DNA of 64,000 nt, from assembly GCF_036507355.1 (NCBI RefSeq), contig NZ_AP027877.1, one strand, 5' to 3'. The notes under the pieces were generated by a model, which searched no databases, had not been told where the DNA came from, and saw nothing but the letters and a program-made list of their open reading frames with translations. A program made the translations under genes and the position numbers. Below, one piece after another: positions 5,398 through 52,108 of this stretch (position 1 is the stretch's first letter; the number at the start of each line of letters is the position of its first letter). This DNA comes from Escherichia coli (GTDB lineage: Bacteria; Pseudomonadota; Gammaproteobacteria; Enterobacterales; Enterobacteriaceae).

Positions 5398-5490
5398 GGT
5401 GAGGTGGCCGAGAGGCTGAAGGCGCTCCCCTGCTAAGGGAGTATGCGGTCAAAAGCTGCATCCGGGGTTCGAATCCCCGCCTCACCGCCA
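5398..5490 (+). tRNA. serV: tRNA-Ser (anticodon GCU)
   Basis: 93-nt sequence ggtgaggtggccgagaggctgaagg...ctcaccgcca with long variable arm and anticodon loop ctGCTaa. Confidence 0.93.
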
Positions 5491-5493
5491 TTT

Positions 5494-5570
5494 GCATCCG
5501 TAGCTCAGCTGGATAGAGTACTCGGCTACGAACCGAGCGGTCGGAGGTTCGAATCCTCCCGGATGCACCA
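5494..5570 (+). tRNA. argV: tRNA-Arg (anticodon ACG)
   Basis: 77-nt gcatccgtagctcagctggatagagtactcggctACGaaccgag...ggatgcacca. Confidence 0.93.
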
Positions 5571-5634
5571 TCTCTTACTTGATACGGCTTTAGTAGCGGT
5601 ATCAAAAAATCTGCAGTAAAGTAAGTTTCCCGAT

Positions 5635-5711
5635 GCATCCGTAGCTCAGCTGGATAGAGTACTCGGCTACGAACCGAGCGGTCGGAGGTTCGAATCCTCC
5701 CGGATGCACCA
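5635..5711 (+). tRNA. argY: tRNA-Arg (anticodon ACG)
   Basis: Identical 77-nt tRNA-Arg copy. Confidence 0.93.
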
Positions 5712-5773
5712 TCTCTTACTTGATATGGCTTTAGTAGCGGTATCAATATCAGCAGTAAAATAAATTTCCCGAT

Positions 5774-5850
5774 GCATCCGTAGCTCAGCTGGATAGAGTA
5801 CTCGGCTACGAACCGAGCGGTCGGAGGTTCGAATCCTCCCGGATGCACCA
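5774..5850 (+). tRNA. argZ: tRNA-Arg (anticodon ACG)
   Basis: Identical 77-nt tRNA-Arg copy. Confidence 0.93.
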
Positions 5851-5952
5851 TATTCTCCGTAATCATCAGTGATGATGGTTAAGAAGGATTTTCTTACTTG
5901 ATATGGCTTTAGTAGCGATATCAATATCAGCAGTAAAATAAATTTTCCCGAT

Positions 5953-6029
5953 GCATCCGTAGCTCAGCTGGATAGAGTACTCGGCTACGAACCGAGCGGT
6001 CGGAGGTTCGAATCCTCCCGGATGCACCA
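5953..6029 (+). tRNA. argQ: tRNA-Arg (anticodon ACG)
   Basis: Identical 77-nt tRNA-Arg copy. Confidence 0.93.
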
Positions 6030-9079: not shown

Positions 9080-9595
9080 ATGCCGTTGTTAGATAGCTTC
9101 ACAGTCGATCATACCCGGATGGAAGCGCCTGCAGTTCGGGTGGCGAAAACAATGAACACCCCGCATGGCGACGCAATCACCGTGTTCGATCTGCGCTTCT
9201 GCGTGCCGAACAAAGAAGTGATGCCAGAAAGAGGGATCCATACCCTGGAGCACCTGTTTGCTGGTTTTATGCGTAACCATCTTAACGGTAATGGTGTAGA
9301 GATTATCGATATCTCGCCAATGGGCTGCCGCACCGGTTTTTATATGAGTCTGATTGGTACGCCAGATGAGCAGCGTGTTGCTGATGCCTGGAAAGCGGCA
9401 ATGGAAGACGTGCTGAAAGTGCAGGATCAGAATCAGATCCCGGAACTGAACGTCTACCAGTGTGGCACTTACCAGATGCACTCGTTGCAGGAAGCGCAGG
9501 ATATTGCGCGTAGCATTCTGGAACGTGACGTGCGCATCAACAGCAACGAAGAACTGGCGCTGCCGAAAGAGAAGTTGCAGGAACTGCACATTTAG
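9080..9595 (+). CDS. luxS: S-ribosylhomocysteine lyase LuxS
   Basis: 171-aa [28 protein letters not shown]... with the HTLEH metal-binding motif. Confidence 0.96.
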
Positions 9596-9610
9596 TCAGT
9601 GGAACAAAAG

Positions 9611-9645
9611 AAGCCGGGCAGGTGACACCACCGCCCGGTTTTTTT
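9611..9645. terminator. Stem-loop terminator shared by convergent luxS and the HD-kinase gene
   Basis: aagccgggcaggtgacaccaccgcccggttttttt; hairpin followed by a T-run on the + strand. Confidence 0.65.
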
Positions 9646-10756
9646 ACCTTTCAATCACCCGATACTCCACGCTATGTGCTTCATCAGGTTGAGGAACTTC
9701 CAGCCTTGAGGCCATCCGCATCACGACCGCTTCAGGAACTGCATACTCGCGTCTGGCATTTTGCTGCTTCCATTGCGCCCATGGCACTTCAAGATAAACG
9801 ATTTTTACTCGTGCGCCGTAAGCCGTAAACAGGCTGATGAGCTGGCTACGCAGCTGGCGGGTAATGTTCGTTGCATTCCAGATGAACGGCTTTTTCTGGC
9901 GTAAAAAAACGCGCGCCTCTTCTTTTGCCTGTTGCACAATACGCCCGGTGGCGGTTTTGTCGTCCGGACTGGCATTGATTCGCCGCCGCATATCATCAAG
10001 GCTGATAACGTCCATTCCTTGGCACTGTTCATTGATATAGCGATCTTTGCCCATACCCGGTAAGCCACAGAGCAAAATAACCTCAAAAGGTTCAGCCTCC
10101 CAGGGAACAAAATCAGGAGAACTTTGCTCATGGGTCAGGTAATGCCAGCGTGCGGAATCAGACACGAACGAGCGCACTTTTCCCCAACACTGTTGCTCCT
10201 GGCAAAACAGCTCGAACAGATCGATGCGTTCCAGCATTGATTGCCGATCCGGGCTTTGGCGACCAAGCAGATCGGCACGAGCAAGCAAAGCGAGCAGACG
10301 CGTGTCGATGCGCATTGCAGCCGTGAGCAACAAACGCTCCGGTTCCGGACGTTCCAGTAACCATAGCGGTAACCCATGCAGACGCACCAGCGCAACAATT
10401 TGCTCGCGTAGCACGAACGGCGTAGGGATATCGCGCCATAAAATTTGTCGGGCCGTCAGCTCGCCCCGGCGTGCGTGGCCAGGCGACTGAATACGTCCGT
10501 TTTCCTTCACGGTAGTGCTGCGCTTTTCAACGTCATGCAATAACGCCGCCGCCCATAAAACTTCCTGCTGTTGAGCGGGGAGTTGCTGGAATACTGGCTG
10601 AGTAACAAGGGCGTTAAGCACCATTTCGGTATGCACGCCGACGTCACCTTCACCATGATGCTCCGGGTCTTGTGGCGTGTGATGCATCTCCTCAACCCAA
10701 CTGAAACGCTGGCGTAGTGTCGACCAGCGTTTATCGTCGGTAAGCTGCCAAATCAT
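9644..10756 (-). CDS. HD-domain phosphohydrolase fused to a P-loop polynucleotide-kinase-like domain (putative nucleic-acid end-healing enzyme)
   Basis: 370-aa ORF; N-terminal HD motifs (HH at ~33-34, H42, HD at ~74-75 in [10 protein letters not shown]); C-terminal Walker A GLPGMGKD (~231-238) and FIWNATN kinase-like motif; overlaps the upstream ligase gene by 4 bp. Confidence 0.7.
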
Positions 10757-13272: not shown

Positions 13273-14445
13273 TTAGCCAGCGTTAGCTTTTACGATATCG
13301 TCGATCAGTTTATTGACAGGTGCCAGGCTGATTTCACGCGCGGTGCTTACCGCTACCGGAGTGGAACGTACTTTATTTGCCAGTACCTGACCGTCACGGT
13401 TAGTGGTATTGACGCTCACCAGCGTGGATAAACCGATACGCAGCGGGTATTGCTCCAGCTGTTTTTGGTCCAGTTCGATACGAACAGGCAGACGCTGAAC
13501 GACTTTGATCCAGTTACCAGTCGCATTTTGCGCCGGAAGCAGTGAGAACGCGCTACCTGTGCCCATATCCAGACCAACCACTTTACCGGTGTATTTCACA
13601 TCATCGCCGTAAATATCGGTGGTGATAGTGACCGGCTGACCGATACGCATATTGGCAATCTGCGTCTCTTTAAAGTTGGCATCCACCCACATATTGGTGG
13701 CTGGAACGACCGCCATCAGCGGCGTCGTTGGGCTAATTTGCGCCCCAGGCTGTACCGCGCGGCGGGAGACATAACCGGTCATCGGACTGACAATACGAGT
13801 ACGCTCCAGCGCCAGCCAGGCGTTACGTACTTCGGTGGCAGCCTGTTGCACGGCAGGCTGATCTTCCAGTTTAGTCCCCAGAATCATCGCCTGATTGGCA
13901 TTGTATTGTTGAATCGCGACGTCCAGTTGCGCCTGGGCACTGGTAACGGCGTCGCGGGCGTGTTGCAGCTCTTCGCGACCAATCAGGTTGGCATTGCCCA
14001 GCGGCACACGGCGGTTGTAGTCGCTTTGTGCTTTCGCGAGGGCGATTTTTTGCACCTCAATATTCGCCTGCAACTGTTTGCTGTTAATCATCAGCTGGTG
14101 GGTTTGGCGAACGCTGGAAGCCAGTGCAGTTTTGGCTTTTTCAAACGCCTGGCGAGCATCTGTCGGGTCGAGAGTGACCAGCACGTCGCCTTCTTTTACA
14201 AAATCGGTGTTATCGGCCCAGACTTTCGTCACGCTGCCAGACACCTGAGACATAATTTGAATTTGATTCCCTGCCACGTATGCGTCATCGGTTTCTTCGA
14301 AGTGACGCAGTACCAAAAACCAATAAATCCCTATCGCTACGGCAATAATTATAAAGAGCAAGGTGAGAAGGAGGAGCAGACGCTTACGTTTGCCGCTCTT
14401 CTTTACCGGTTGCTGCGGGGTTTGAGTCTCCGCATTTGCGCTCAT
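13273..14445 (-). CDS. emrA: Multidrug efflux periplasmic adaptor EmrA
   Basis: ORF translation ...MSANAETQTPQQPVKKSGKRKRLLLL...; HlyD-family adaptor. Confidence 0.95.
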   Translation of the reverse strand: MSANAETQTPQQPVKKSGKRKRLLLLLTLLFIIIAVAIGIYWFLVLRHFEETDDAYVAGNQIQIMSQVSGSVTKVWADNTDFVKEGDVLVTLDPTDARQAFEKAKTALASSVRQTHQLMINSKQLQANIEVQKIALAKAQSDYNRRVPLGNANLIGREELQHARDAVTSAQAQLDVAIQQYNANQAMILGTKLEDQPAVQQAATEVRNAWLALERTRIVSPMTGYVSRRAVQPGAQISPTTPLMAVVPATNMWVDANFKETQIANMRIGQPVTITTDIYGDDVKYTGKVVGLDMGTGSAFSLLPAQNATGNWIKVVQRLPVRIELDQKQLEQYPLRIGLSTLVSVNTTNRDGQVLANKVRSTPVAVSTAREISLAPVNKLIDDIVKANAG

Positions 14446-16255: not shown

Positions 16256-16378
16256 AGAGTGTACGCTTAACGATTGTTAATATTATAAATAGACTGAATG
16301 AATATCTTAACCTTATCAGACTGATGGGCTTCTTAACACCCTTATAAGTGTAAAGCCACGAAAACGGTTGCTGATTGC

Positions 16379-17563
16379 TTAATTTGCGGCTTCCTGACGA
16401 TGAAAACCTCGCCACCAGACCAGTAAGTTAACCAGGGCAATCGTCGCGCCAGCCAGACAAACGCCAGCCCAACCGCCATGTTGCCAGGCTGAGGCTGAAA
16501 TTAGCGATCCGGCGGCACCGCCAATAAAGTAGCTGGTCATGTAACCTGCGGTCAGGCGATTACGCGCATCAGGATGTATTCGATAAATTACCGTCTGGTT
16601 AGTGATATGCACGCCCTGCACGGTGAGGTCCAGCACCAGGATGCCGATAATCAGCGCCAGTACGGAAGTGTGACCAAACCAGATTGCCAGCCATGAAAGT
16701 AACAGCAGAAGCAGACCGAAAGTTGTTGTGTGGTGCGATTTGCCCTTGTCGGCAAAACCGCCCGCTGGACGAGCGCCCAACGCTCCGGCAGCTCCCGCAA
16801 GTCCAAACAGACCAATTACACCATCGCTGTAGTTAAAAGGTGGAGCGGCAAGCAAAAAGGCCATTGAGGTCCAGAGAATGCTGAAGTTGGCAAAGGTCAG
16901 GCAGCCCAGCAACGCGCGGGTGCGCAGGATCTTATCGCTGATAAACATGCTGAAAACGGAACCAAGCAACTGTGGGTAGTTGAGGTGGGTTTCTGATTTC
17001 ATTTGTGGCAGACCACGCCATAATGCCAGCGCCATCAGTGCCATTAACACCGAGGCAACCCAAAAGACTGTGCGCCAGCCGCCGAGGTTTGCCAGCAACC
17101 CGGCAACGGTTCGTGCCAGCAAGATCCCCAACAGCAGACCGCTCATAATGGTGCCGACCACTTTGCCGCGTTTGTCCGGTGAAGCCAGCGTCGCTGCCAG
17201 CGGAACCAGAATTTGTGCCACGACCGAGAATAAACCGGTTAATGCCGTACCGAGGATCATCATCGCCAGCGACTGACTGCTGGCAGTGATTAACATGCCG
17301 CCTGCCGCCAGTAAGGTCATCGAGACAATCAGGCGGCGGCGTTCAAACATATCACCGAGGGGAACAAGAAACAGCAGACCGGCGGCATAGCCCAACTGCG
17401 CGGCGGTAACAATAAAGCCTGCCGAACTGGCGGAAAGGGAAAAGTTACGCGCGATGGTGTCGAGCAATGGCTGGGCGTAATAGTTGCTGGCGACCGCCAG
17501 ACCGGTGGCGATAGACATCAGCACGATTAGCGCCGGGCTAAGCTCATGATTAGGTTTGGTCAT
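16379..17563 (-). CDS. ygaY: MFS transporter YgaY (uninterrupted reading frame)
   Basis: 394-aa continuous ORF with 12 predicted TMS pattern; position between proX and ygaZ. Confidence 0.8.
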   Translation of the reverse strand: MTKPNHELSPALIVLMSIATGLAVASNYYAQPLLDTIARNFSLSASSAGFIVTAAQLGYAAGLLFLVPLGDMFERRRLIVSMTLLAAGGMLITASSQSLAMMILGTALTGLFSVVAQILVPLAATLASPDKRGKVVGTIMSGLLLGILLARTVAGLLANLGGWRTVFWVASVLMALMALALWRGLPQMKSETHLNYPQLLGSVFSMFISDKILRTRALLGCLTFANFSILWTSMAFLLAAPPFNYSDGVIGLFGLAGAAGALGARPAGGFADKGKSHHTTTFGLLLLLLSWLAIWFGHTSVLALIIGILVLDLTVQGVHITNQTVIYRIHPDARNRLTAGYMTSYFIGGAAGSLISASAWQHGGWAGVCLAGATIALVNLLVWWRGFHRQEAAN

Positions 17564-25361: not shown

Positions 25362-25793
25362 TTACATCCGCATGGAAACGGCCAGACGGTTAAAACAATT
25401 CATCAGCCCGATGGCAAACGTTAAGTCGCTGATTTCTGCTGCGCTGAAATGCTCAAGCAAAGGCTGATAAGCCTCGTCTTCCGCATGGGTTCTGGCAATA
25501 TCGGTCACTGATTCCGCCCATGCCAGCGCCGCTCGCTCGCGTTCATCAAAATGATGGCTTACGCGCCAGCCTGCCAGGGCGTCCAGTTTGTGTTGTGGCA
25601 CACCGGATTTGCGCAATGCTTTGCTGTGCATCTCCAGACAAAATGCGCAGCCGTTGATTTGCGAGACGCGCAAATAAATTAACTCCATCAACGTGGTATC
25701 CAGCGTGCTATTTTCCAGTGCCGTTTTGGCCTGCACCAGTGTGTTATACACTGCCGGGCTAAGTTCGTAGTAAGGCTGACGTAATGTAGTCAT
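25362..25793 (-). CDS. Carboxymuconolactone decarboxylase family (AhpD-like) protein
   Basis: 143-aa ORF with CxxCxxxH signature in SQINGCAFCLEMHS. Confidence 0.75.
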   Translation of the reverse strand: MTTLRQPYYELSPAVYNTLVQAKTALENSTLDTTLMELIYLRVSQINGCAFCLEMHSKALRKSGVPQHKLDALAGWRVSHHFDERERAALAWAESVTDIARTHAEDEAYQPLLEHFSAAEISDLTFAIGLMNCFNRLAVSMRM

Positions 25794-25880
25794 ACAGTTT
25801 CTCCTCTTATTAACGCCCGCAATGTAGCACTATAATGGACTGCTAAAGAGAGCCATAAATTACCTAAAAAAGCAGACCAT

Positions 25881-27215
25881 ATGCCACGTTATCAGGATAT
25901 CGCCCGTCAGTTAAAAACGGCTATTGAGCAAGGAGAACTGAAACCTGGCGCAAGGCTACCCTCGAGCCGTACCTGGTCGCAGGAGCTGGGTGTCTCTCGA
26001 TCCACTGTCGAAAATGCTTATGCTGAGCTGGTGGCGCAGGGATGGCTGGTCAGGCGGGGACAGGCGGGTACCTTTGTCAGTGAGCAGATACATCCGCAAC
26101 AGTCTGCTGTGGATGTCGTGGCTTTTGCTGGTGAAAGTCAGCAGCCGCTGCCTTTTCAGATGGGGCTACCTGCACTTGATCTTTTTCCGCGTGAATTGTG
26201 GGCGCGGGTGATGGGCCGCCGTCTGCGTACCCAGACGCGTTTTGATTTGGCATTAGGCGATGTCTGCGGCGAGGCGGCCTTGCGCGAGGCTATTGTTGAT
26301 TATTTACGCGTTTCACGTGGGATTGATTGTCAGCCAGAGCAGGTCTTTATCACTCACGGTTATGCGGCCTCAATGGCTTTAATTCTGCACGCTCTGGCGC
26401 AACCGGGAGACGGGATGTGGATGGAAGATCCCGGCTTTCCGCTGATTCGCCCGATTGTCACTCGCCACGGTATGGAAATTTTACCTGTGCCGGTTGATGA
26501 CAACGGACTGGATGTCACAAGCGGAATACAAAATTATCCTGATGCGCGTTTTGCCCTGATTACTCCGGCACACCAAAGCCCGCTGGGTGTGGCACTCTCT
26601 TTAGCGCGTAGGTATCAGATACTGGAATGGGCAGAGCGTAGTCAGGCATGGATTATTGAAGATGATTACGACAGTGAGTTTCGCTATCACGGTAAGCCGT
26701 TACCGGCACTAAAAAGTCTCGACGCGCCGCAGCGGGTGATTTATGCCGGAACATTCAGCAAAGCGCTATTTCCTGCATTGCGCTGTGCGTGGCTGGTGGT
26801 GCCGGTGGAGCAGATTTCGCAATTCCGGCAGCAGGCGTCACTGGAACCATGTGCTGTACCCGTACTGTGGCAGAACACACTGGCAGATTTCATCCGTGAG
26901 GGGCATTTCTGGCGGCATCTGAAGAAAATGCGCCAGCATTATGCCCAGCGACGGCAGTGGATTGAGCAGGCACTTACGCAGCAGGGATTTCAGGTTGTGC
27001 CGCAAAAAGGCGGTATCCAGATGGTGATCAAACTAGCAGGTAATGACGTGACATTCGTGCATAAAGCCAATGCTGCTGGTCTTGCCGTACAGGCACTTAG
27101 CGACTGGCGTATCCGCTCAAGCGAGGACGGAGGATTATTGCTCTCGTTTACGAATATCGTTAGCGAAAGTATGGCGCGACAGGTAGCACAGCAATTGCGC
27201 AGTGCTTTAAATTAA
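25881..27215 (+). CDS. MocR/GabR-family transcriptional regulator (GntR wHTH + PLP aminotransferase-like domain)
   Basis: 444-aa ORF; N-terminal RLPSSRTWSQELGVSRSTVENAYAELVAQGWL; C-terminal fold-type I region with GTFSKALFP (candidate PLP lysine). Confidence 0.8.
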   Translation: MPRYQDIARQLKTAIEQGELKPGARLPSSRTWSQELGVSRSTVENAYAELVAQGWLVRRGQAGTFVSEQIHPQQSAVDVVAFAGESQQPLPFQMGLPALDLFPRELWARVMGRRLRTQTRFDLALGDVCGEAALREAIVDYLRVSRGIDCQPEQVFITHGYAASMALILHALAQPGDGMWMEDPGFPLIRPIVTRHGMEILPVPVDDNGLDVTSGIQNYPDARFALITPAHQSPLGVALSLARRYQILEWAERSQAWIIEDDYDSEFRYHGKPLPALKSLDAPQRVIYAGTFSKALFPALRCAWLVVPVEQISQFRQQASLEPCAVPVLWQNTLADFIREGHFWRHLKKMRQHYAQRRQWIEQALTQQGFQVVPQKGGIQMVIKLAGNDVTFVHKANAAGLAVQALSDWRIRSSEDGGLLLSFTNIVSESMARQVAQQLRSALN

Positions 27216-33586: not shown

Positions 33587-33734
33587 CCTGAATCCTCTCG
33601 AAAGTGTGTCACTTGGGAGAGCGCCCCGACATTTCCCGCGTCGGGTCACGCGTTTAATTGTTATTGATTCTTTTTGCCGGAGAGCGGCTCCGCCTTACCC
33701 GGCCAACATAGATTTATTCCTGTTCACGTACAGA

Positions 33735-34087
33735 TTGTCGGATGCGGCGTAGACGCCTTATCCGACCTGGATCCCCGTAGGCCGGACAAGACGCAAAGCG
33801 TCGCCTCCGGCATGGGTGCGCCGATTGTCGGATGCGGCGCAAACGCCTTATCCGACCTACATTTCCGTAGGCCGGACAAGACGCGTAAGCGTCGCCTCCG
33901 GCATGGTGCGCCGAATGTCGGATGCGGCGTAAACGCCTTATCCGACCTACACTCTCGTAGGCCGGACAAGACGCGTAAGCGTCGCCTCCGGCATGGTGCG
34001 CCGAATGTCGGATGCGGCGTTAACGCCTTATCCGACCTACACTCTCGTAGGCCGGACAAGACGCGCAGCGTCGCCTCCGGCATGGGG
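33735..34087. repeat. BIME/REP array (about 4 tandem units of ~85-90 bp)
   Basis: Repeated tgtcggatgcggcg...acgccttatccgacct...gtaggccggacaagacgcg...gcgtcgcctccggcatgg units between gabT and gabP. Confidence 0.85.
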
Positions 34088-40307: not shown

Positions 40308-41075
40308 GGTGATGCTGCCAACTTACTGATTTAGTGTATGATGGTGTTTTTGAGGTGCTCCAGTGGCTTCTGTTTCTATCAGCTGTCCCTCCTGTTCAGC
40401 TACTGACGGGGTGGTGCGTAACGGCAAAAGCACCGCCGGACATCAGCGCTATCTCTGCTCTCACTGCCGTAAAACATGGCAACTGCAGTTCACTTACACC
40501 GCTTCTCAACCCGGTACGCACCAGAAAATCATTGATATGGCCATGAATGGCGTTGGATGCCGGGCAACAGCCCGCATTATGGGCGTTGGCCTCAACACGA
40601 TTTTACGTCACTTAAAAAACTCAGGCCGCAGTCGGTAACCTCGCGCATACAGCCGGGCAGTGACGTCATCGTCTGCGCGGAAATGGACGAACAGTGGGGC
40701 TATGTCGGGGCTAAATCGCGCCAGCGCTGGCTGTTTTACGCGTATGACAGGCTCCGGAAGACGGTTGTTGCGCACGTATTCGGTGAACGCACGATGGCGA
40801 CGCTGGGGCGTCTTATGAGCCTGCTGTCACCCTTTGACGTGGTGATATGGATGACGGATGGCTGGCCGCTGTATGAATCCCGCCTGAAGGGAAAGCTGCA
40901 CGTAATCAGCAAGCGATATACGCAGCGAATTGAGCGGCATAACCTGAATCTGAGGCAGCACCTGGCACGGCTGGGACGGAAGTCGCTGTCGTTCTCAAAA
41001 TCGGTGGAGCTGCATGACAAAGTCATCGGGCATTATCTGAACATAAAACACTATCAATAAGTTGGAGTCATTACC
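40308..41075 (+). mobile_element. IS1 insertion sequence, copy 1 (768 bp, with target-site duplication)
   Basis: Starts ggtgatgctgccaacttactgat, ends ...gttggagtcattacc; insA-like ORF 40363..40638 and insB-like ORF 40557..41060; flanked by atattttg direct repeats (40300..40307 and 41076..41083). Confidence 0.95.
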
Positions 41076-42488
41076 ATATTTTGGGTTAAATAAGTTAGTG
41101 TTGTGTAATCGCTCATTATAATTTTTAAGCGGTGGGGTTATTGATCTTTCTATTTGTTCATGTTTTGAGTGTTTTGCTGCATCATAACGTAAACCTCGTA
41201 CGCCATATTTTCGCATTTCACGAACGTATTGATTTTGCAGCATAATAACCTGGTCACTTTTGGGGGTTGTTTTAGGCATTCCATTTAAACGCTTTTCTTT
41301 TAATGCATGGAGGTTTTCCCATTCATCCTTAGAGATGTTATCTTTACTTGCTTCGAAGTCTTTTGCAGTGAGATGTATATCTTCTGGATGGATTTGTTTA
41401 CGTTCTTTTGTTACTGGATCGATAATAAATGGAACCAAAACCTGACCTTGCCAATAGCCAGGGATACCACCTTCTATATCTTTACTGATCTTCGCTCGTA
41501 TATCAGCAGAGGGATAATCCAGGTCATTTTTACCACTACCCCCGATTCCCATAAAGTTAAAGGTATAATCAGGAATGATATCGATACCAAATTTTTTAGC
41601 ATCTTTAACCAATGCGATAAAATCCTGCAAATCTCCCATTGGATTATGGATGGTACAAAGATCTTCGGGTTGATAAGCGTGAAACCAGTAACCTTTTTCT
41701 TCTTCGGGAGTTTCTGGTCCGTCGGCACGGAAAGTTGTCACTGGAGGGATTTGTATATACCCATAATGGCAACGTGCAAATTCAGACATATTTTCTCTGA
41801 TTTGCTGGTAGGTGGCATTAAAAGCATGAAGAATCGCTTCGCCAGGTTTTTTGGGGGTGATGATTTCACATTGTGATTTCTGAACAGCAGTAAGAGATTT
41901 ACGCTCAAGTGTTTGCCGTAGATGTTCTGGATTGATTAGTATTTTAAATGTTTCTTGCTGTCCGGAAGGTGACGTCACGTTAATATTATATACATCGGCT
42001 GCCAGCTCATAGTCAGGAATGTTAATAGCATATGCAACATATTTATCTTTTGGGGAGGGTTTGTCAGATATAATGTGGGTGAAATGTTCAGCAGGACCAT
42101 ACTGGTGAACCCCCTTGTTATCTTCTCTTTCATTCATTGTATCTCTTTGATAAATCCATGTTTTTCCTTCTCCTATCCTGTCTGGCGCTGTAATACTACG
42201 CTGTGCAGCTTTATTCAGTTCACGGTAAGTTGTATCTGGAAAAAGGGAAATTTTATAATCGTTTTTTAACAGATCATTAATGATTTTTTCTGCGTGAAAA
42301 GTTGATATAATTTCTCTGTCTTTTAAATCCTGAGGATAAACTCCACAAGCATTAATAATATTTGTTACACAGTTTAGATATTCTAATGTATTTAATTTGG
42401 AATTTAGATCCCCGTCAGTAATGTTCCATGATAACAATGTGGGGTTGTCGATAGGTAAATTTCTTGGTCCTGGTTTTATAGAAAACAT
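41076..42488 (-). pseudogene. 5' portion of alpha-amylase-like (GH13, ygaQ-like) gene disrupted by IS1
   Basis: ORF 40995..42488 carries GH13-like motif GVRGLRYDAAKH; its last ~27 codons read into IS1. Confidence 0.7.
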
Positions 42489-43047
42489 AATAACGTTCCT
42501 CTAATGGTAGAGTAATATGATGTATACGGAGACATAAAAATGTTTAATTGTTGTGAAAGTAATTGCAAACAGATGTCCTATTTTTATCCAATATTTATAT
42601 GGAAAAGGATAATGCTTAAATCTGTTTTTTTAATTATCGATGTGGTCTGGAGAGGCAACTGTCAAAAATCGCTCATACGAAACTAATTATTAGCAGAATA
42701 AGTTCTATAAAAGAATATATTGCTATATGAAGTTTATTTTTATGGAGTGAAAAGTAACAGATATCATAATGATGCGAAAACTCTTCAGTTAATGTAATAA
42801 ACTTATATTATTAGATACAAAATCATTACAAAGTATCATTGAATCGATGATAACTATAGACAGTGTTAATTATTAACATTTGCTTGTTGACTGCGAGTAT
42901 CGACTTTGCGAATGGAGGCGATGTCGGGTTTTATGTCGCATGTATTGACGACCCAGGATGGATGAGAACGCATAAAAATCTGTTATTTACATCATAAGAT
43001 CATCATGTTTATTGCGTGGTTTATAAGTATTGTTATTGCATACTTAA

Positions 43048-43123
43048 GGCCCTTTAGCTCAGTGGTTAGAGCAGGCGACTCATAATCGCTTGGTCGCTGG
43101 TTCAAGTCCAGCAGGGGCCACCA
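43048..43123 (+). tRNA. ileY: tRNA-Ile2 (anticodon CAU/lysidine type)
   Basis: 76-nt ggccctttagctcagtggttagagcaggcgactCATaatcgcttggtcgctggttcaagtccagcaggggccacca. Confidence 0.9.
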
Positions 43124-43873
43124 AATCATCATTCATGTATCAGGAAGAGTTAAGGGTACAAGGGGTACTCGATGGCGGTCTATATTTCATGACTAACGCC
43201 ATTTAAAGGAAGAAGTGCGGTGGGTGGTTTCGAATGAGGGCTGGTGTTTTGGTACGTGGCACGCCACTGCAATGTATTTATCCATCAGTACTCATTCAAA
43301 AGTACCTGGAAAAAATGCCCGCTATGCCAAGCGGGCAAATTGCTTACATGTGGAATTAAGTAATTAACGATAAAGCCAGAGTATTATCATTTATTATACC
43401 CATTCATTTAATCAGGTTAATTACTCAAATCACTGAACTATTCTCTGTTCGCTCACTGATGATGAGTGAGTACCACAACCAATGTATTAGAACAATGCCG
43501 TAGAGTAAGGATGAAATGTCTCTACCACACCTTAAACATCTACTACTGACTAGAACACCCGCCGCAGGTAGATGAGTTTTGTGAGCGTTACAGGAGCGTG
43601 GCTATGCTCATTAACCAACGCTATTGAGATATAAATTTCTAACACTTGAAAAACGATTTTCACTAATAAATTATAACGGGTGTTTTTTATCATACAGCGA
43701 AATAACTTTTTGTTTATTAAATTTAACATTCTTGTGCTAATTTAATTAAAAAGTCCATGCGTAGCATGTGAAGCAGTTAATGCCAGCAATTGTCTCAAAT
43801 GAGCGATTTTTTATAGTGACAAACAATAATAACATTAAAAATAGCCATGTAGACATTAACTGAGGAATAGACA

Positions 43874-45223
43874 ATGTTAATTAATAAAAGCAACGGATTT
43901 AACGCTAGCGCAGTTTTGGGTAGTGGAAATTATAATGAAAATAAATCTTCTAAACACATGGAGCTACTAGCTCATAGTATTGTAAAATTAATTTGTAAGG
44001 AAGCTGCATCAGAGACGTATCGCGGTGCTCTTGAAACTTTACAAAAAATGATGTCTGAATGTAAATATAAAGAAGGCAACGCCTTTGTCATTATGGGTGC
44101 TGGAGGGCAATTAAAACGTATTAAATATGATGTTGATGAAAATAAATTAAAAATATTCAACATATACTTTGATAATAATTACGAGGTAGTTACTGATGGT
44201 GAGCCTGACGTAGTATGTTTAAGCAAGCAGGTCTGGGAAAATCTTCTCATTAAATTAAAACCGGAGATTAAAGAAAATGTGTTTTCTGAAAATAACAAAT
44301 TATCGAGAGAAAATAATGTTGATCAGTATGTTCAATCCGCTAAAAGAAATGAACAGGCCCTTTTCGATAATATAATAAAAAGTGATTTTCATGTTGCTTC
44401 ACTTCAGCCAGGTAGAACACGTAGTGTTATTTCAGAAACGCCGCCAAATGACTGTATGGAATCACGTAATTCATATGAAAACCAAATAGATGAGATTTCA
44501 TCTTTGTCAGAGTCAAAGGAACACCCTATAGATATTCAAGAAAAAACAGATGCGTTTGTGAATGAGTTCAAGGGGATATTATTTGATCAAAATGGAAGGT
44601 CTTCAGAGTTTCTACTTAATTTTTATGAATGTTGCTATGTGTTTTTACCAAGAGCGCAGCCTCAGGATAAAATCGAAAGCTATAATTCAGCACTGCAAGC
44701 TTTTTCCATCTTTTGTTCATCTACGTTGACACATAATAATATAGGCTTTGATTTCAAATTATTTCCAGAAGTCAAGCTGTCTGGAGAACATCTTGAAACG
44801 GTATTCAAATACAAAAATGGCGATGATGTCCGGGAGATAGCCAAAATTAACATTTCTCTCCAAAAAGAAGAGGGTGGTTTATATAATTTACGTGGATTGG
44901 ATTTTAAGGGATGCTTCTTTTCTGGACAGAACTTCAGTAACTATGATATTCAATACGTGAACTGGGGAACGTCATTGTTTGATGTTGATACTCCGTGTAT
45001 TTTTAATACGCCTGCTAACAATGAGAGTTATGAAAAATCATTAAAACCTGTAAGCGAAAACGGTTTAAATGGAGTCTTATCTGATCGTATTAAAAAAATA
45101 AAAATGATCACGGGTGTGGCACCATTCGATGATATTTTATTTATGGATGATGACTTTGATGATAACTCCCCTGAGGATGGTCCCGTTGAGAATATTCCTG
45201 TTATGAATAGTCCTCTTGTATAA
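43874..45223 (+). CDS. Hypothetical protein, AT-rich, with C-terminal pentapeptide-like repeats and acidic tail
   Basis: 449-aa ORF; visibly AT-rich; NLRGL/DFKGC/FFSGQ/NFSNY/DIQYV/NWGTS pentad periodicity; ends MDDDFDDNSPEDG; hairpin ggggctacgttttcatgtaacccc ~150 bp after the stop. Confidence 0.6.
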   Translation: MLINKSNGFNASAVLGSGNYNENKSSKHMELLAHSIVKLICKEAASETYRGALETLQKMMSECKYKEGNAFVIMGAGGQLKRIKYDVDENKLKIFNIYFDNNYEVVTDGEPDVVCLSKQVWENLLIKLKPEIKENVFSENNKLSRENNVDQYVQSAKRNEQALFDNIIKSDFHVASLQPGRTRSVISETPPNDCMESRNSYENQIDEISSLSESKEHPIDIQEKTDAFVNEFKGILFDQNGRSSEFLLNFYECCYVFLPRAQPQDKIESYNSALQAFSIFCSSTLTHNNIGFDFKLFPEVKLSGEHLETVFKYKNGDDVREIAKINISLQKEEGGLYNLRGLDFKGCFFSGQNFSNYDIQYVNWGTSLFDVDTPCIFNTPANNESYEKSLKPVSENGLNGVLSDRIKKIKMITGVAPFDDILFMDDDFDDNSPEDGPVENIPVMNSPLV

Positions 45224-45649
45224 AGTTCTAAAAGCAGTTTTCAATGATAAATAAATGGCTATTTTTACGAAGAGATAATAACGTAGATTGAAACAATATG
45301 TATTATTGATTGAGTAAATGGGATTATTCTTCACACTACATCCATTTTAGTGTCACTACCAAAGAAAAAGGGGCTACGTTTTCATGTAACCCCTTGATTT
45401 ATTTGGTGGGCTGGCAGTGACTGAATTGGTGCTGTAATTGGTTGAAATATTTCATCTAATGTCTGGTTCAACTTTCCTTAGCTGCCTGAAAGTTTTTTGA
45501 TCTCACCCAGTAATAACAGCGTTACGGTGCACCACGCCTGACTGAAGAACTGCGTGCTCAGGGTTACCACTTCAACGTAAAACCGTGGCAGGAGGTCCGG
45601 ACTGAAAAAACTGCTCAGGACATCATCGGCAGGGAACGCACTGCTAGTC

Positions 45650-45830
45650 TGTAAACTGAACCGACTGGGGCGCAGTATGTGGCATCTTGTCGTGCTGTTG
45701 GAGGAGCTGTGCGAACGTGGTATTAACTTTCGTGCTCTGGCCCAATCTATATTTGCCCAACAATGGGGGGACGAATGCTGTAAAAGTAAAACAATCTGCG
45801 ATCTCAAAGTTATTGTGTGATTTTTATGTG
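45650..45830 (+). pseudogene. Remnant of a Pin/Hin-type serine invertase (pinH-like)
   Basis: Translated fragment [37 protein letters not shown] resembles the invertase core (...WKLDRLGRS...RGI.F.SL...); frame breaks upstream. Confidence 0.55.
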
Positions 45831-46149
45831 AGCAGAAGATATTCATCAGAAACGATTATGTAAATCATTTTATTTTGCCAACGGCCTCATTGTCGAAAGA
45901 AAAGAATACGCCCGTGTTTCCTGAATAGATTGACTTTTTTATCTAACCACACTTCAGCGCACTGCGTTTAAAAAATGCCTCATTCTTATGCGGAATATCA
46001 TCATTTCATCATGATGTCTTTGATGAGCGGTGAACACAATACACTTGCGCTGTCTCTTCAGGATGAATCCCCTGGTCTGGTGCCTGTGGGCTGATGTTGC
46101 AGCAAAGCTAAGGTCGCTTAAACGCTACTCAGTATTCACTTTTCAGAGG

Positions 46150-47653
46150 ATGAAATTTATGAACAGGACCAGTCCCTATTATTTTCGCCGCTCAGTACTT
46201 TCCTTATTGATATCTACCTTAATATATGCCCAGCCCGGGATGGCGGCCTTCACTACTAATGTTATTGGTGTGGTAAACGATGAGACTGTAGATGGCAACC
46301 AACGAGTAGATGAACGAGGTACAACAAATAACACTCATATTATCAACCATGGCCGGCAGGAGGTCTATGGTGGGATATCTAATAGTAGTATTATTGAAAC
46401 TGGTGGCGAGCAACTAGTATCAATCCATGCCGATATTAACGGGCAAGCTAATAATACAACCATTAATGGAGGCAGACAGTCAATTGAGTACGGAGGAATT
46501 TCTACTAGCACGATAATCGAAAGTGGCAATCAATATGTTCATAAAGGTGGTACCAGCAATGACACGACAATTAAGGGCGGTACTTCACGCATAGAGGGGG
46601 GGACTGCAAATGGAACAATCATTGATGGTGGTAGCCAACAAGTAACAACTCAGGGGCATGTTGACGGTACAACGATAAATAAGTCTGGCTCTCAGGACGT
46701 AGTACAAGGAAGTCTGGCAACGAACACAACCATAAATGGTGGTCGACAGTATGTTGAACAGAGCACAGTAGAAACAACAACCATTAAAAATGGCGGTGAG
46801 CAAAGAGTATATGAGAGCCGTGCGCTGGACACGACGATTGAAGGCGGAACTCAGTCTCTGAATAGTAAGTCAACGGCAAAAAATACACAGATCTATTCTG
46901 GTGGCACGCAAATTGTTGATAACACCAGCTCCTCGGATGTTATTGAAGTTTATTCCGGTGGCGTGCTTGATGTTAGTGGTGGTACGGCAACAAATGTTAC
47001 CCAGCACGATGGTGCAATTTTAAAAACTAACACTAACGGTACGACGGTGAGCGGTACGAATAGTGAAGGTGCATTCTCCATCCACAATCACGTGGCAGAC
47101 AATGTGTTGCTGGAAAACGGTGGTCATTTAGACATAAACGCATATGGTTCGGCAAACAAGACGATTATTAAAGATAAAGGAACAATGTCAGTTTTAACCA
47201 ATGCTAAAGCTGATGCGACCCGAATAGATAATGGCGGGGTTATGGATGTTGCAGGAAACGCGACAAATACCATAATTAATGGTGGCACACAGAATATTAA
47301 TAATTATGGCATAGCCACAGGCACCAATATCAACAGCGGAACGCAAAATATCAAAAGCGGCGGGAAAGCTGACACAACAATTATATCCTCCGGGAGCCGG
47401 CAGGTTGTTGAGAAAGATGGTACGGCAATTGGCAGCAATATTAGCGCCGGAGGCTCGCTGATTGTCTATACCGGCGGTATTGCACATGGGGTTAACCAGG
47501 AGACGGGCAGTGCTTTAGTTGCCAACACGGGTGCAGGGACTGATATCGAAGGATACAACAAGCTCTCTCACTTCACTATTACCGGAGGGGAGGCTAATTA
47601 TGTTGTGCTGGAAAACGCTGGCTCATTAACAGTCGTCACTGGTTCCCGGGCAG
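46150..47653 (+). pseudogene. Autotransporter-adhesin passenger domain (ypjA-like), truncated by IS1
   Basis: Signal peptide MKFMNRTSPYYFRRSVLSLLISTLIYAQPGMA then repeated ...TTINGGRQ...GGT.. motifs; reading frame runs directly into the IS1 left end at 47654; no beta-barrel domain. Confidence 0.75.
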
Positions 47654-48421
47654 GGTGATGCTGCCAACTTACTGATTTAGTGTATGATGGTGTTTTTGAG
47701 GTGCTCCAGTGGCTTCTGTTTCTATCAGCTGTCCCTCCTGTTCAGCTACTGACGGGGTGGTGCGTAACGGCAAAAGCACCGCCGGACATCAGCGCTATCT
47801 CTGCTCTCACTGCCGTAAAACATGGCAACTGCAGTTCACTTACACCGCTTCTCAACCCGGTACGCACCAGAAAATCATTGATATGGCCATGAATGGCGTT
47901 GGATGCCGGGCAACAGCCCGCATTATGGGCGTTGGCCTCAACACGATTTTACGTCACTTAAAAAACTCAGGCCGCAGTCGGTAACCTCGCGCATACAGCC
48001 GGGCAGTGACGTCATCGTCTGCGCGGAAATGGACGAACAGTGGGGCTATGTCGGGGCTAAATCGCGCCAGCGCTGGCTGTTTTACGCGTATGACAGGCTC
48101 CGGAAGACGGTTGTTGCGCACGTATTCGGTGAACGCACGATGGCGACGCTGGGGCGTCTTATGAGCCTGCTGTCACCCTTTGACGTGGTGATATGGATGA
48201 CGGATGGCTGGCCGCTGTATGAATCCCGCCTGAAGGGAAAGCTGCACGTAATCAGCAAGCGATATACGCAGCGAATTGAGCGGCATAACCTGAATCTGAG
48301 GCAGCACCTGGCACGGCTGGGACGGAAGTCGCTGTCGTTCTCAAAATCGGTGGAGCTGCATGACAAAGTCATCGGGCATTATCTGAACATAAAACACTAT
48401 CAATAAGTTGGAGTCATTACC
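47654..48421 (+). mobile_element. IS1 insertion sequence, copy 2 (768 bp, no target-site duplication)
   Basis: Same sequence and orientation as copy 1 (identical InsA/InsB translations); flanks cccgggcag / gaggttttg do not match. Confidence 0.95.
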
Positions 48422-49239
48422 GAGGTTTTGTTATATATGTTGTTTCCAATATATTTTTCATTTGTCAAAATTTGATGTATTTTTGCACGAGTCCATAATG
48501 TTCCATTTTCTGCAGGTATGTTCTGTTCATTTAATCTCTCAGCAATAATGAATTCTGGGACGTTATTATCTATAAAGAGATCATATATTCTATTTACAAT
48601 TTTTATTTCATTTTTTGGTCCCGGAATTAATATTACCCTATCTGTTTGAATACTCTTTCTTTTGCGGAAACTCAATATTTCTTTAGCTATGCCATTTTCG
48701 TCTACTAAAAGACGTCTCAGCCCATAACCAGCCATACCGCCTTGATGATAACCAAGCTTTATTAAATTTACTTGCCCTATAAATACCTTTTCAGATAGAT
48801 TCCTGCTGTGATATGCAGCACTAGATCTTTTTATATTCAGTATAACAGAGGACTCTAAAGGGAAATCTTTAGTGGGTATAGGTTCGGAACAATATATAAG
48901 ATCTACACCATTTCTCTCAAATAGAAAGGAATAATATGCCGCTTCATCACTATTTTGAAAACGACCAAAACGGCTCACATCATAAAATAATACAGCCTGT
49001 ATATCTATTTTCTTTTGTTCTACATCGCTAAGTAACTGCTGCAAAGAATGCCTGCCTACGATACTGACTCCGCTCTTACCTGCATCATCGTAGGTATAAG
49101 CGATTTCCATATTGTTCTTTTCAGCATAATCTTTGATATATTCGGACTGATTATGTAAAGAATATTGCTGATGGTCGGTAGACATCCTCAAGTACTGCGC
49201 GACCCTAACTCTATGATTTTTTTCATTTTCGCTAGCCAT
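48422..49239 (-). pseudogene. Large serine recombinase, C-terminally truncated by IS1
   Basis: N-terminal resolvase catalytic motif VAQYLRMSTDHQ and following recombinase-domain sequence; ORF ends inside IS1 after ~272 codons; AT-rich. Confidence 0.7.
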
Positions 49240-49521
49240 GCACGAAACCTCATGGATGATTCAATACAATGTAGTGGATAAAATTGATCAAATTTTAACC
49301 GAATTCAACTGTTTTATCATTGATTAGAGCGAATTTGGTAGATCTTCGAGGTGTATGATAATCGAGAAGAGATGTGAATTATTTAGCTGATATGACCGAC
49401 AGCTTTCGTTATGTGGACTCAATGTCCCCATTTGTAAATGGCTATGCTTAGTCCACATAGGTTAATGGTGTGATTATTAATTCTTTAACTAAATCAAGAT
49501 AGTTAATCCATCATGGGAGAG

Positions 49522-50751
49522 TTATGCGGCAATAACTTTGCATTTTTGAGACGAAACATAGTCACTCCACCATTGCATGAGAACCACCCGTTCAGTGAGA
49601 TACTCTGCACGATTGTAGGCTGCAATTATTTCATCTTTCTTCGAGTGGGCAAGGGCGGCTTCTAAGACATCAGTCCTAAACTTGCCAGACTCCTCAGCAG
49701 CCGTTCTAGCAATGGATCGCATACCGTGAGCTACAAGCTCACCTCCGAAACCCATACGGATTATGGCCGCATTAGCTGTTTGTTCATGCATGTGATTGAG
49801 TGGAGCTTTGATACTGGGGAACACCCACTCTCTATGCCCGCTGATGACTTTCATTAAATCCAAAACTCGCAAAGCTTCTTTGCTCAGTGGAACTTTGTGA
49901 GGCTTCTTCATTTTCATAAACTCCGCCGGGATGTTCCACATGCCAGTTTCAATATCAATATCTGACCATCTTGTGCGAACAGCTTCACCTGGGCGAACCC
50001 ATGTGAGAAGTTGCCACTCAATCAGTAGCCTTGTTTCCAAACGGATAGAAGCATTGTTTAGAGCAACCAAGAAGCGAGGGAGTTCGGAAGGGGGTAATGC
50101 TGGCATATTCTGTTTTTTTGGCTTGCTGAACCGTTGCCCCAGGTTGTCTGCCGGGTTGAATTCTATGAGTTCTTCTGTTGCTGCATAGCGGAAAATTTCA
50201 TTCAGGCGGGATATGATGCGGCGAAGTGTTTCAAGGACACCTCGTTTTTCTATGGGTTCTAAATGCTGTTTAAGCATTTTAGGGCGAATCTCCTTAATTG
50301 GGGTATCACCCAATGTGGAAAAGATATTTCTCTCTAGGCTTCGCCAGATGTCGTTAGCATGATCTTGGGAGATGCCTGACGTTTTGACTTTCTCATCAAG
50401 CCACTTCTTGGCTACTGCTTGAAATGTATGTTCCGTGGCATCTTTCAGTGCATTGGCTTTTTGGTTGTTATGAACTTGGGGGTCTATACCATTTGTAAGC
50501 AACGACAAGTATTCATCACGTAAAGCTCGTGCCTTCGCAAGTGTAAGGTGAGGATAGGTTCCTAAGCTCACCTTAGTTCGCTTTTTGGTCACAGGCACTG
50601 CATATCTGAAATACCAATTTTTCTTCCCTCCCTTCGCCAGGGGAGCGATTCGCAACAGCAAACCATCGCCGTCAAAAAGGTTAACCTCTTTTTCGGCAGG
50701 TTTGGTGCTTTTGATTTCAGTGTCAGTGAGCTTCTTAGCGATTTTGGCCAT
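49522..50751 (-). CDS. P4-type tyrosine integrase adjacent to tmRNA
   Basis: ORF ...MAKIAKKLTDTEIKSTKPAEKEVNLFDGDGLLLRIAP...WYFRY...; C-terminal catalytic domain (HGMRSIARTAAEE); 166 bp from the ssrA 3' end. Confidence 0.88.
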   Translation of the reverse strand: MAKIAKKLTDTEIKSTKPAEKEVNLFDGDGLLLRIAPLAKGGKKNWYFRYAVPVTKKRTKVSLGTYPHLTLAKARALRDEYLSLLTNGIDPQVHNNQKANALKDATEHTFQAVAKKWLDEKVKTSGISQDHANDIWRSLERNIFSTLGDTPIKEIRPKMLKQHLEPIEKRGVLETLRRIISRLNEIFRYAATEELIEFNPADNLGQRFSKPKKQNMPALPPSELPRFLVALNNASIRLETRLLIEWQLLTWVRPGEAVRTRWSDIDIETGMWNIPAEFMKMKKPHKVPLSKEALRVLDLMKVISGHREWVFPSIKAPLNHMHEQTANAAIIRMGFGGELVAHGMRSIARTAAEESGKFRTDVLEAALAHSKKDEIIAAYNRAEYLTERVVLMQWWSDYVSSQKCKVIAA

Positions 50752-50917
50752 GTTTGGGACCCTCGATTTTAGGACCCATCTTCGTGGGTCCCATTCAGGG
50801 TGCCATAACTCGTAGTTCTCAGCAATTCTCACTAGACTACAATAGACGTAAAAAAGCCCGCAGAGCTTGTGCTGTGCGGGCTTAGTAGACTTTACTGAAC
50901 TTCAGTACATCAATATT

Positions 50918-51280
50918 TGGTGGAGCTGGCGGGAGTTGAACCCGCGTCCGAAATTCCTACATCCTCGGTACTACATGCTTAGTCAGTCTTTACATTCGCT
51001 TGCCAGCTGCGGACGGACACGCCACTAACAAACTAGCCTGATTAAGTTTTAACGCTTCAACCCCAGGCAGGGCTTCCACGCGATCTCTTTTGGGTTTGAC
51101 CTCTCTTGATCCCCGTCCTAAGAGCGGAGGCTAGGGAGAGAGGGCTCTAAGCAGGTTATTAAGCTGCTAAAGCGTAGTTTTCGTCGTTTGCGACTATTTT
51201 TTGCGGCTTTTTACGAGGCCAACCGCCCCTCGGCATGCACCTTGGGTTTCGCAAATCCCGTCGAATCCAGAATCAGCCCC
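50918..51280 (-). ncRNA. ssrA: tmRNA (SsrA)
   Basis: Minus-strand reading starts ggggctgattctggattcgacggg and ends gttcaactcccgccagctccacca; encodes tag peptide ANDENYALAA (gcaaacgacgaaaactacgctttagcagct); 363 nt. Confidence 0.95.
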
Positions 51281-51494
51281 AATGTGTAAAGGTAAGTATA
51301 CCAGATTTATGAGCGCCATGACCAGCCTCAATGGCGTTATCGTTAAAGATTTAGCACCCATGTAGCCTGATTTTTATTCGATTAAGCAATGGAATGGCAA
51401 CATTTGTGTCGGATGTGATAACCAATAAGATGTTCATTCGCGCCGCCGGAGAGGGAGGCGCGGTGAGGAACTGGTCAATAATTGGAGTGCAGGT

Positions 51495-51977
51495 TTAACG
51501 GTGGGCGTTTTTCATGATACGCGCTTTATCCACCTGCCATTCGCGCTCTTTGATATCTGAACGTTTATCGTGCTGTTTCTTACCTTTGGCGACGCCGATT
51601 TTCACTTTGCACCAGGCATTTTTCCAGTACAGGGAGAGCGCCACTACGGTATAGCCTTCTCGATTGACGCGACCGTACAATGAGTCCAGTTCGCGCTGGT
51701 TGAGAAGTAACTTGCGGGTACGGGTAGGATCGCACACCACATGCGTGGAGGCCACGGCCATTGGCGTGATGTTAGCGCCAAACAGAAATGCCTCTCCGTC
51801 ACGCAGAAGGACGTAGCTGTCGCTGATATTGGCTTTTCCTGCGCGCAGGGATTTAACTTCCCAGCCTTGCAGGGCAAGTCCCGCTTCGAACTCTTCTTCG
51901 ATAAAGTATTCGTGACGGGCGCGCTTGTTAAGCGCGATGGTCGCTGAACCAGGTTTATGTGCTTTTTTCTTCGTCAT
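51495..51977 (-). CDS. smpB: SsrA-binding protein SmpB
   Basis: 160-aa [47 protein letters not shown]... Confidence 0.96.
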
Positions 51978-52108
51978 AAGCGTCGTGAATCATCGGTAAT
52001 CTGAAATCGAAAACACCCCATATCAATCCTGCGGGGGACAAGGCTCTATCTTAGCATGAACCCGATGTTACCCAGCGCCGGGATAGCGTTTTTTTTACAG
52101 CAGGATAA

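Follow-up and report, generated by a model that had tools for sequence, protein, structure and literature searches.

The closest described relative of the locus analysed here is CP4-57 of Escherichia coli K-12 (intA, alpA and the attR psaA), which occupies the same site, between the 3' end of ssrA, the tmRNA gene, and the 3' flank of ypjA. CP4-57 is known to excise by way of AlpA and IntA. Its distal end is psaA, a 14-nt pseudo-ssrA located 160 bp past the ypjA stop codon. Islands linked to tmRNA are also known from Pseudomonas, where I23, I44 and I55 are non-autonomous defence islands with the integrase first (PMC12595487). In these and in the Vibrio islands alpA is distal and the repeat is a perfect 14 bp, and a serine recombinase-ParB cassette is not reported for them (PMC12595487).

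We examined the ssrA locus in a 64-kb stretch of E. coli DNA (the whole stretch is referred to as the window, and coordinates are positions within it). The segment next to ssrA is very probably the immobilised proximal stump of a type of ssrA-integrated island common in Enterobacteriaceae, eroded by an IS1-associated deletion. The features concerned are as follows.

46159-47653, plus strand: 5' part of ypjA/ehaD, approximately codons 1-498 of 1526 (AIDA repeats by Pfam; blastp, blastn and RefSeq feature names).
47654-48421, plus strand: IS1, 768 bp, with ORFs at 47709-47984 and 47903-48406.
48422-49239, minus strand: 5' 818 nt of a large serine recombinase gene, codons 1-272 of 518, a pseudogene (Pfam; comparison with WP_025297248.1).
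49240-49521, minus strand: spacer of 282 bp between integrase and recombinase, kept with the block in all relatives.
49276-49300: AT-rich GATC near-palindrome in the spacer.
49410-49459: 50-bp imperfect palindrome in the spacer.
49522-50751, minus strand: CP4-57/P4-like tyrosine integrase of 409 aa, ORF from the ATG at 50751 (Pfam, NCBIfam).
50847-50882, minus strand: terminator-like hairpin with a T-run (terminator scan; stem 50868-50854).
50918-50947, minus strand: att core, the last 30 nt of ssrA (TGGTGGAGCTGGCGGGAGTTGAACCCGCGT on the plus strand).
50918-51280, minus strand: ssrA (ARAGORN; Rfam RF00023, 295.8 bits, full length).

The ssrA gene is complete, with 0 mismatches to its K-12 counterpart and a tag peptide of ANDENYALAA as determined by ARAGORN. 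It has smpB just upstream (51495-51977), and the chromosome in the window, which is of E. coli/Shigella type, is inverted with respect to K-12. The island is attached at the ssrA 3' end, which is reconstituted at the island junction and constitutes attL. The length of the core was obtained from CFSAN061772, in which another island is inserted between ssrA and an integrase of the WP_001062342.1 type, leaving a partial ssrA; in this tandem array exactly the 30-nt att core is repeated beside the same integrase (L003 22497-22526). As the partial ssrA spans exactly 30 nt, the att core has a maximum length of 30 nt. The terminator-like hairpin lies 36-71 nt downstream of ssrA, within island-derived DNA, and has a 33-nt match at 91% to the K-12 CP4-57 flank (L006 3003-3035). 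In both cases ssrA uses a terminator brought in by the element, and this hairpin is the only part of the island flank in the window with DNA similarity to that of CP4-57.

The integrase start is separated from the ssrA 3' end by 166 bp (50752-50917), which reproduces to the base the distance given in a first-pass annotation of this DNA; as in CP4-57, the integrase is the first gene after ssrA, placing it beside the 3' end of the target gene. The protein has the same sequence as RefSeq WP_001062342.1 and consists of an arm-binding domain (Arm-DNA-bind_3, PF13356, 5.6e-23), a central core-binding domain (Phage_int_M, PF22022, 3.4e-24) and a C-terminal catalytic domain (Phage_integrase, PF00589, 8.1e-20). 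It scores 444.6 bits against NCBIfam PRK09692 (cut-off 434) and shares 48% amino acid identity with K-12 IntA over the full length, both belonging to the same family with the same domain architecture. The window integrase was aligned with four relatives (IntA, an IntS-like integrase and two alleles), and R253, H342, R345, H369 and Y379 were found to be invariant, with the frame uninterrupted. The earlier description of a P4-type integrase with an intact frame is upheld by this alignment, which reveals no inactivating lesion. Judged by its sequence the integrase gene is intact, and plausibly it can still be expressed, expression and activity being presumed. Its GC content is 46%, compared with 50% for the window.

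Beyond the spacer lies the recombinase stump, whose sequence is the same as residues 1-272 of WP_025297248.1 (518 aa). It bears VAQYLRMSTDHQ, with the catalytic motif YLRMSTDHQ and the nucleophile Ser20, and Pfam assigns it a Resolvase domain (2.4e-22) together with positions 1-63 of the 102 positions of the Recombinase domain. The N-terminal catalytic domain is therefore present, with both the serine motif and the Resolvase match. The C-terminal DNA-binding region is incomplete, since of the 518 residues the window copy keeps only the first 272 and breaks off within the Recombinase domain. For the full-length recombinase, no zinc ribbon is matched by Pfam and no CxxC pair is visible. Position 48422, where the stump ends, is the first base after IS1, and the fragment is a pseudogene because it is cut by this element. 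A 279-aa ORF fusing the recombinase to IS1 had no record in the database look-up. The first-pass annotation had described an AT-rich N-terminal part of a large serine recombinase, in agreement with the 34% GC content of the fragment, and a residual ssrA-linked island, a reading that is likewise supported. It had also noted little cargo before IS1; between the recombinase stump and IS1 there is in fact none.

The region 48422-50917 occurs with at least 99% identity in 535 complete E. coli genomes. The first-pass annotation had proposed a comparison with intact ssrA islands. Reading from ssrA, these contain the integrase (409 aa), the serine recombinase at its full 518 aa, and a pair of ParB_N/RepB proteins of 298 aa each, which overlap. 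The cargo past this four-gene block is variable and mostly of defence type, and the distal end of the E. coli island is a degenerate pseudo-ssrA repeat just past the ypjA 3' end. A type I restriction-modification system forms part of the cargo in both ST540 and B-1109, the latter further carrying a relaxase, ankyrin-repeat proteins and a SIR2 protein. Klebsiella and Enterobacter have the same four-gene block beside ssrA, with Mrr/McrA-like or UvrA-like plus ThiF cargo. In Salmonella the cassette is found behind a P2-like prophage, and in front of the cassette lie a partial copy of ssrA and a gap of integrase size in which no gene is called. Identity of the four-gene block across genera is at least 96%.

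The recombinase-ParB-ParB cassette of these islands is intact in 620 of 654 carriers (5426 complete E. coli genomes searched), BL21-lineage strains included. A copy with 94% identity is present in the argW/IntS island of E. coli. A scan of genome contigs yielded only 6 loci. A copy in Xenorhabdus is 58% identical and has two ORFs of approximately 295 aa, while Agrobacterium pAtC58 and a Burkholderia plasmid carry homologues with approximately 45% identity, behind which lie two 'RepB C-terminal domain' genes whose starts overlap. A match on a 'Lactiplantibacillus' plasmid was set aside, the GC content of 62-71% indicating a probably misassigned contig.

The wider distribution raises the question of whether the cassette is a separate, nested element, inserted by its own serine recombinase beside or into the 3' ends of P4-like integrases, in which case the window would hold the remnants of two elements. 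The difference in GC content (34% for the cassette, 46% for the integrase) points in this direction, as does the occurrence of the cassette on the Agrobacterium and Burkholderia plasmids and in Xenorhabdus without the integrase found in the window. In the argW island, the cassette has a decayed integrase 3' fragment on each side, the two being in direct orientation, and the 50-bp imperfect palindrome of the spacer has the geometry of a serine-recombinase att site. Nevertheless, all integrase alleles with at least 90% identity to that of the window are linked to the same 282-bp spacer, the 80%-identity allele never is, and the four-gene block is conserved across genera as a whole. Furthermore, the apparent right-hand boundary 50 bp past the second ParB gene coincides with the start of an IS3 fragment shared by the ssrA islands, and neither an empty target site nor a matching attR-like palindrome was found. 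We therefore regard a nested origin as unlikely.

The cassette itself is apparently uncharacterised, a combination of a serine recombinase lacking a zinc ribbon with two ParB_N/RepB proteins encoded in overlapping frames; full-text literature searches found no published description of either the cassette or the island type. PADLOC gave no match for the recombinase or the first ParB and only a weak methyltransferase-type ParB_N match for the second; it has no model for the cassette, and assignment to a known defence system was rejected on this basis. PHROGs classify the recombinase as 'integrase' (PHROG 95) and both ParB proteins as 'unknown function'. Tentatively, the cassette might represent a new maintenance, recombination-control or defence module of islands and plasmids, acting for example through ParB-clamp-directed site-specific recombination, although we consider this doubtful. 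The 50-bp spacer palindrome, which is kept in the window, is a candidate site for such ParB-directed recombination. The window copy of the cassette is dead, with most of it lying outside the window; the wider interest is in the strongly conserved cassette of the intact island, which is present in common laboratory strains of E. coli B lineage.

On the far side of IS1 the sequence is not that of the recombinase, and instead corresponds to the chromosomal autotransporter gene ypjA, which is cut. The first-pass annotation had recognised neither this truncated chromosomal gene nor the place of the recombinase in a conserved integrase-recombinase-ParB-ParB block. The window ypjA has 91% identity by blastp to residues 1-498 of the 1526 in B-1109 YpjA. 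A blastn comparison with B-1109 shows that window positions 41076-47615 correspond to L005 16887-23426, and that similarity resumes with window positions 48422-52000 29.3 kb further on. Apart from IS1, none of the intervening 29.3 kb of B-1109 DNA is represented in the window. The resulting deletion size of approximately 29 kb is measured against a single comparator, B-1109, which has the longest island found, and cargo varies by strain. Relative to B-1109, the window lacks the entire cargo and both ParB-like genes, as well as the remainder of the recombinase; the distal att junction is missing too, together with the ypjA 3' end.

This bears directly on mobility. The first-pass annotation had suggested that excision factors might still act on the remnant, which would make it an excisable mini-island with an intact integrase and a far att site nearby. 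The intact frame and catalytic residues of the integrase, the attL with its complete ssrA, and the excision of CP4-57 from the same site through AlpA and IntA all speak for such an element. However, no second ssrA 3' core is present in the 64-kb window, as searched with 18-, 26-, 29- and 30-nt cores allowing up to 3 mismatches, and k-mers of at least 10 nt shared with the core are only chance 10-11-mers, with none of 12 nt or more across the window. The same annotation had named the lack of a far att repeat beforehand as grounds for abandoning its suggestion, and the 30-nt core is indeed single-copy in the window. The distal backbone flank (CACCGTCCAATCATGAT) likewise has no copy in the 64 kb. 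This flank can be recognised because the backbone sequence abutting the distal att is common to K-12, B-1109 and GYB01, the last of which is an empty site, its ssrA 3' end directly meeting the same distal backbone sequence. At the backbone position of psaA, B-1109 carries a degenerate ssrA remnant, the degenerate form of psaA being TGGTGGGCTGGCGG. A good distal direct repeat was not seen in the intact relatives and that of B-1109 is only degenerate, which suggests that even full-length relatives may be poorly mobile.

In the window, the IS1 deletion passes the island end into ypjA and removes the ypjA 3' end, beyond the distal junction, indicating that this junction was deleted as opposed to displaced. 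Between ssrA and IS1 the ORF list contains only the integrase and the recombinase stump, with no AlpA/Xis-type gene, and the window as a whole offers neither an attR nor cargo or an excision regulator. With a single att site, the stump would be unable to excise by site-specific recombination. Excision competence of the remnant thus appears to be refuted, at least within the 64-kb window, and a mini-island that is still excisable is very unlikely. A displaced attR outside the window, for example following an inversion, is formally possible.

The IS1 at the joint measures 768 bp and has both its terminal inverted repeats and the insA/insB frames; the RefSeq name for matching sequence is IS1/IS1A. 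It lacks the target-site duplication of 8-9 bp that a simple insertion leaves, the 9-bp flanks being different (CCCGGGCAG versus GAGGTTTTG). A second IS1 at 40308-41075 shows 0 mismatches to it over 768 positions and is bordered by an 8-bp duplication (ATATTTTG). The lack of a duplication at 47654, unlike the identical copy at 40308, identifies the former as a deletion joint. A simple IS1 insertion into the recombinase gene of a complete island, the remainder continuing past IS1, is known elsewhere (GENOMIC22-004, for example), but can practically be dismissed here, given that ypjA codons 1-498 lie across an IS1 without a target-site duplication and that the window contains no further recombinase, ParB or cargo sequence.

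We propose that an IS1-associated deletion joined recombinase codon 272 to approximately codon 498 of ypjA; a single IS1 could have deleted the DNA adjacent to it, or two IS1 copies could have recombined with each other. Lost with this deletion would be two thirds of ypjA and the distal att, and from the island itself the cargo, both ParB genes, the C-terminal half of the recombinase and whatever excision regulator there was. The locus would keep attL, made up of an intact ssrA and a terminator from the island, along with the intact integrase gene and the dead fragment of the recombinase, and the intact ssrA 3' end would stay available as attB for new elements. While the anatomy, the identities, the joint and the lack of a second att site in the window can be read directly, the order of events is one that we infer. 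No E. coli genome in the collection has a pre-existing IS1 at either breakpoint; H34 and H36 were considered as carriers and rejected, as their IS1 insertions are at other positions. The IS1 insertion at the window 40308 site is found in no complete E. coli genome searched, and the same is true of the joint between ypjA, IS1 and the recombinase.

Other genomes carry IS1 joints of their own at this locus. In AH21, IS1 joins recombinase codon 31 to ypjA; in EC556, it joins recombinase nucleotide 1030 to an amylase pseudogene. The joint of E. coli B falls after the second ParB gene, leading to glaH, and that of ST540 after the restriction-modification genes, adjoining ileY. CFSAN061772 has a further independent IS1 joint at the ssrA locus. 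The window breakpoints are common to none of these five, and with no other genome having them, the deletion appears to be private to the source strain. The ssrA-ypjA interval can be viewed as a recurrent target of IS1 deletion.

Taken together, the remnant is a known kind of element that reflects ordinary genome decay and is no mobile unit: a textbook island stranded at a tRNA/tmRNA site through IS-mediated erosion. For annotation, its value is in identifying an orphan integrase, a recombinase pseudogene, a ypjA pseudogene and a deletion joint.

In terms of known systems, the full-length recombinase resembles the large serine recombinases TP901-1 integrase, SPbeta SprA/YokA, CcrB and TnpX, in which a Y-x-R-x-S-T-x-x-Q catalytic domain is followed by a Recombinase domain. 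Its sequence matches are 3bvp, 9dxh and 2mhc, NCBIfam CcrB and PHROG 95, and the nearest solved structures are domains of TP901-1, TnpX and SPbeta SprA. In contrast to these enzymes, the cassette protein has no Pfam zinc ribbon and is co-transcribed with two ParB-like proteins, and the window copy stops at residue 272. Pseudomonas I23, I44 and I55 and the Vibrio VPI-1-type elements share with the intact relatives a tmRNA-proximal tyrosine integrase, variable defence cargo and a short tmRNA 3'-end repeat, and in both groups most copies are without evident transfer machinery; they differ from the window, where nothing distal survives. In CP4-57, the integrase is followed by yfjH and alpA, whereas the recombinase and two ParB genes take this place in the intact relatives of the window island, and neither attR nor cargo nor a regulator is left in the window copy. 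The closest correspondence is with E. coli B, C43(DE3) and NEBExpress, where the integrase is again WP_001062342.1 and the recombinase belongs to the same family, with DNA identities of 99.9-100%. The E. coli B locus has also been shortened by an IS1-associated deletion into chromosomal genes, but there neither the recombinase nor either ParB gene is damaged and it is the complete block that IS1 joins to glaH, whereas in the window the recombinase is cut and joined to ypjA.

The recombinase-ParB-ParB cassette, of which the window retains recombinase codons 1-272, comprises three genes with overlapping frames, encoding a 518-aa serine recombinase and two ParB_N/RepB-type proteins of ~298 aa. 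Its conservation spans Enterobacteriaceae islands through to Agrobacterium and Burkholderia plasmids, and, of the 5426 complete E. coli genomes, 620 carry the cassette intact, the BL21 lineage among them. Neither a defence-system model (PADLOC) nor a publication was found for the cassette by model and literature search. Copies were located in the comparison loci (L-numbers) as follows:

L001, 17483-20818
L015, 10679-14014
L019-L023, 10001-13336
L032, 5989-9328
L033, 5971-9310
L027, 9986-13302

A recombinase homologue also occurs on NZ_CP110863.1 (L034), which PLSDB lists as a plasmid of Lactiplantibacillus plantarum; the GC content is 62-71%, and the organism assignment is probably wrong.

The spacer between the integrase and recombinase genes contains a 50-bp imperfect palindrome (window 49410-49459) with arms of 24 nt around a 2-nt centre, the outer 10-mers of which are perfect (TATGTGGACT / AGTCCACATA). 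It is kept in relatives, and could serve as an operator or as a site for a recombinase. The spacer also has a GATC near-palindrome, rich in AT, at 49276-49300.

The two IS1 copies of the window (40308-41075 and 47654-48421) are identical in sequence and directly oriented. The former is a simple insertion, located in a ygaQ-like amylase pseudogene with an 8-bp duplication (ATATTTTG). Between these identical direct copies lie 6.6 kb with the ypjA stump, ileY, ypjCB and a pinH remnant, so recombination between the two could cause a further deletion. The ssrA-ypjA-ileY interval has been eroded by IS1-associated deletions in AH21, E. coli B, ST540, CFSAN061772 and EC556; these are independent events, and the breakpoints differ in every lineage. 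The deletion loci are:

L002, 12256-13060
L015, 14413-15110
L001, 9365-10062
L003 (CFSAN061772), 16269-16969

Between the two IS1 copies, the window ypjCB (43874-45223) is an uninterrupted 449-codon ORF (NCBIfam YpjCB, 924 bits); in several RefSeq comparators an internal stop interrupts the gene, which is annotated there as a pseudogene. Elsewhere, the window contains:

5398-6029, tRNA cluster serV-argV-argY-argZ-argQ, repeat units of ~130 nt
25362-27215, divergent AhpD-like (143 aa) and MocR/PdxR-like (444 aa) genes between nrdH and ygaM
33725-34084, intergenic REP/BIME-type palindromic repeats near the gab genes, four tandem 90-nt units

The tRNA cluster is arranged as is normal for E. coli. 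The divergent pair is a small accessory insertion, because nrdH and ygaM are directly neighbouring in strains GYB01 and B-1109.

In the E. coli argW/IntS island (L007), the cassette lies between two directly oriented remnants of ssrA-type integrase genes, both of them decayed 3' fragments (9175-9734 and 13434-13677), and DUF6119 and hxsACBD come next. Strain 2013C-4465 (L016) combines ssrA, an integrase allele of 80% identity, DUF6119 and hxs without the cassette. Together, these arrangements suggest that P4-like islands exchange modules with one another. At ssrA, CFSAN061772 has a tandem array (L003 22497-34374), in which a second element, with DarT/DarG, phage remnants and a type II restriction-modification system, is inserted between ssrA and the integrase block, with a 30-nt partial ssrA copy at the internal junction.
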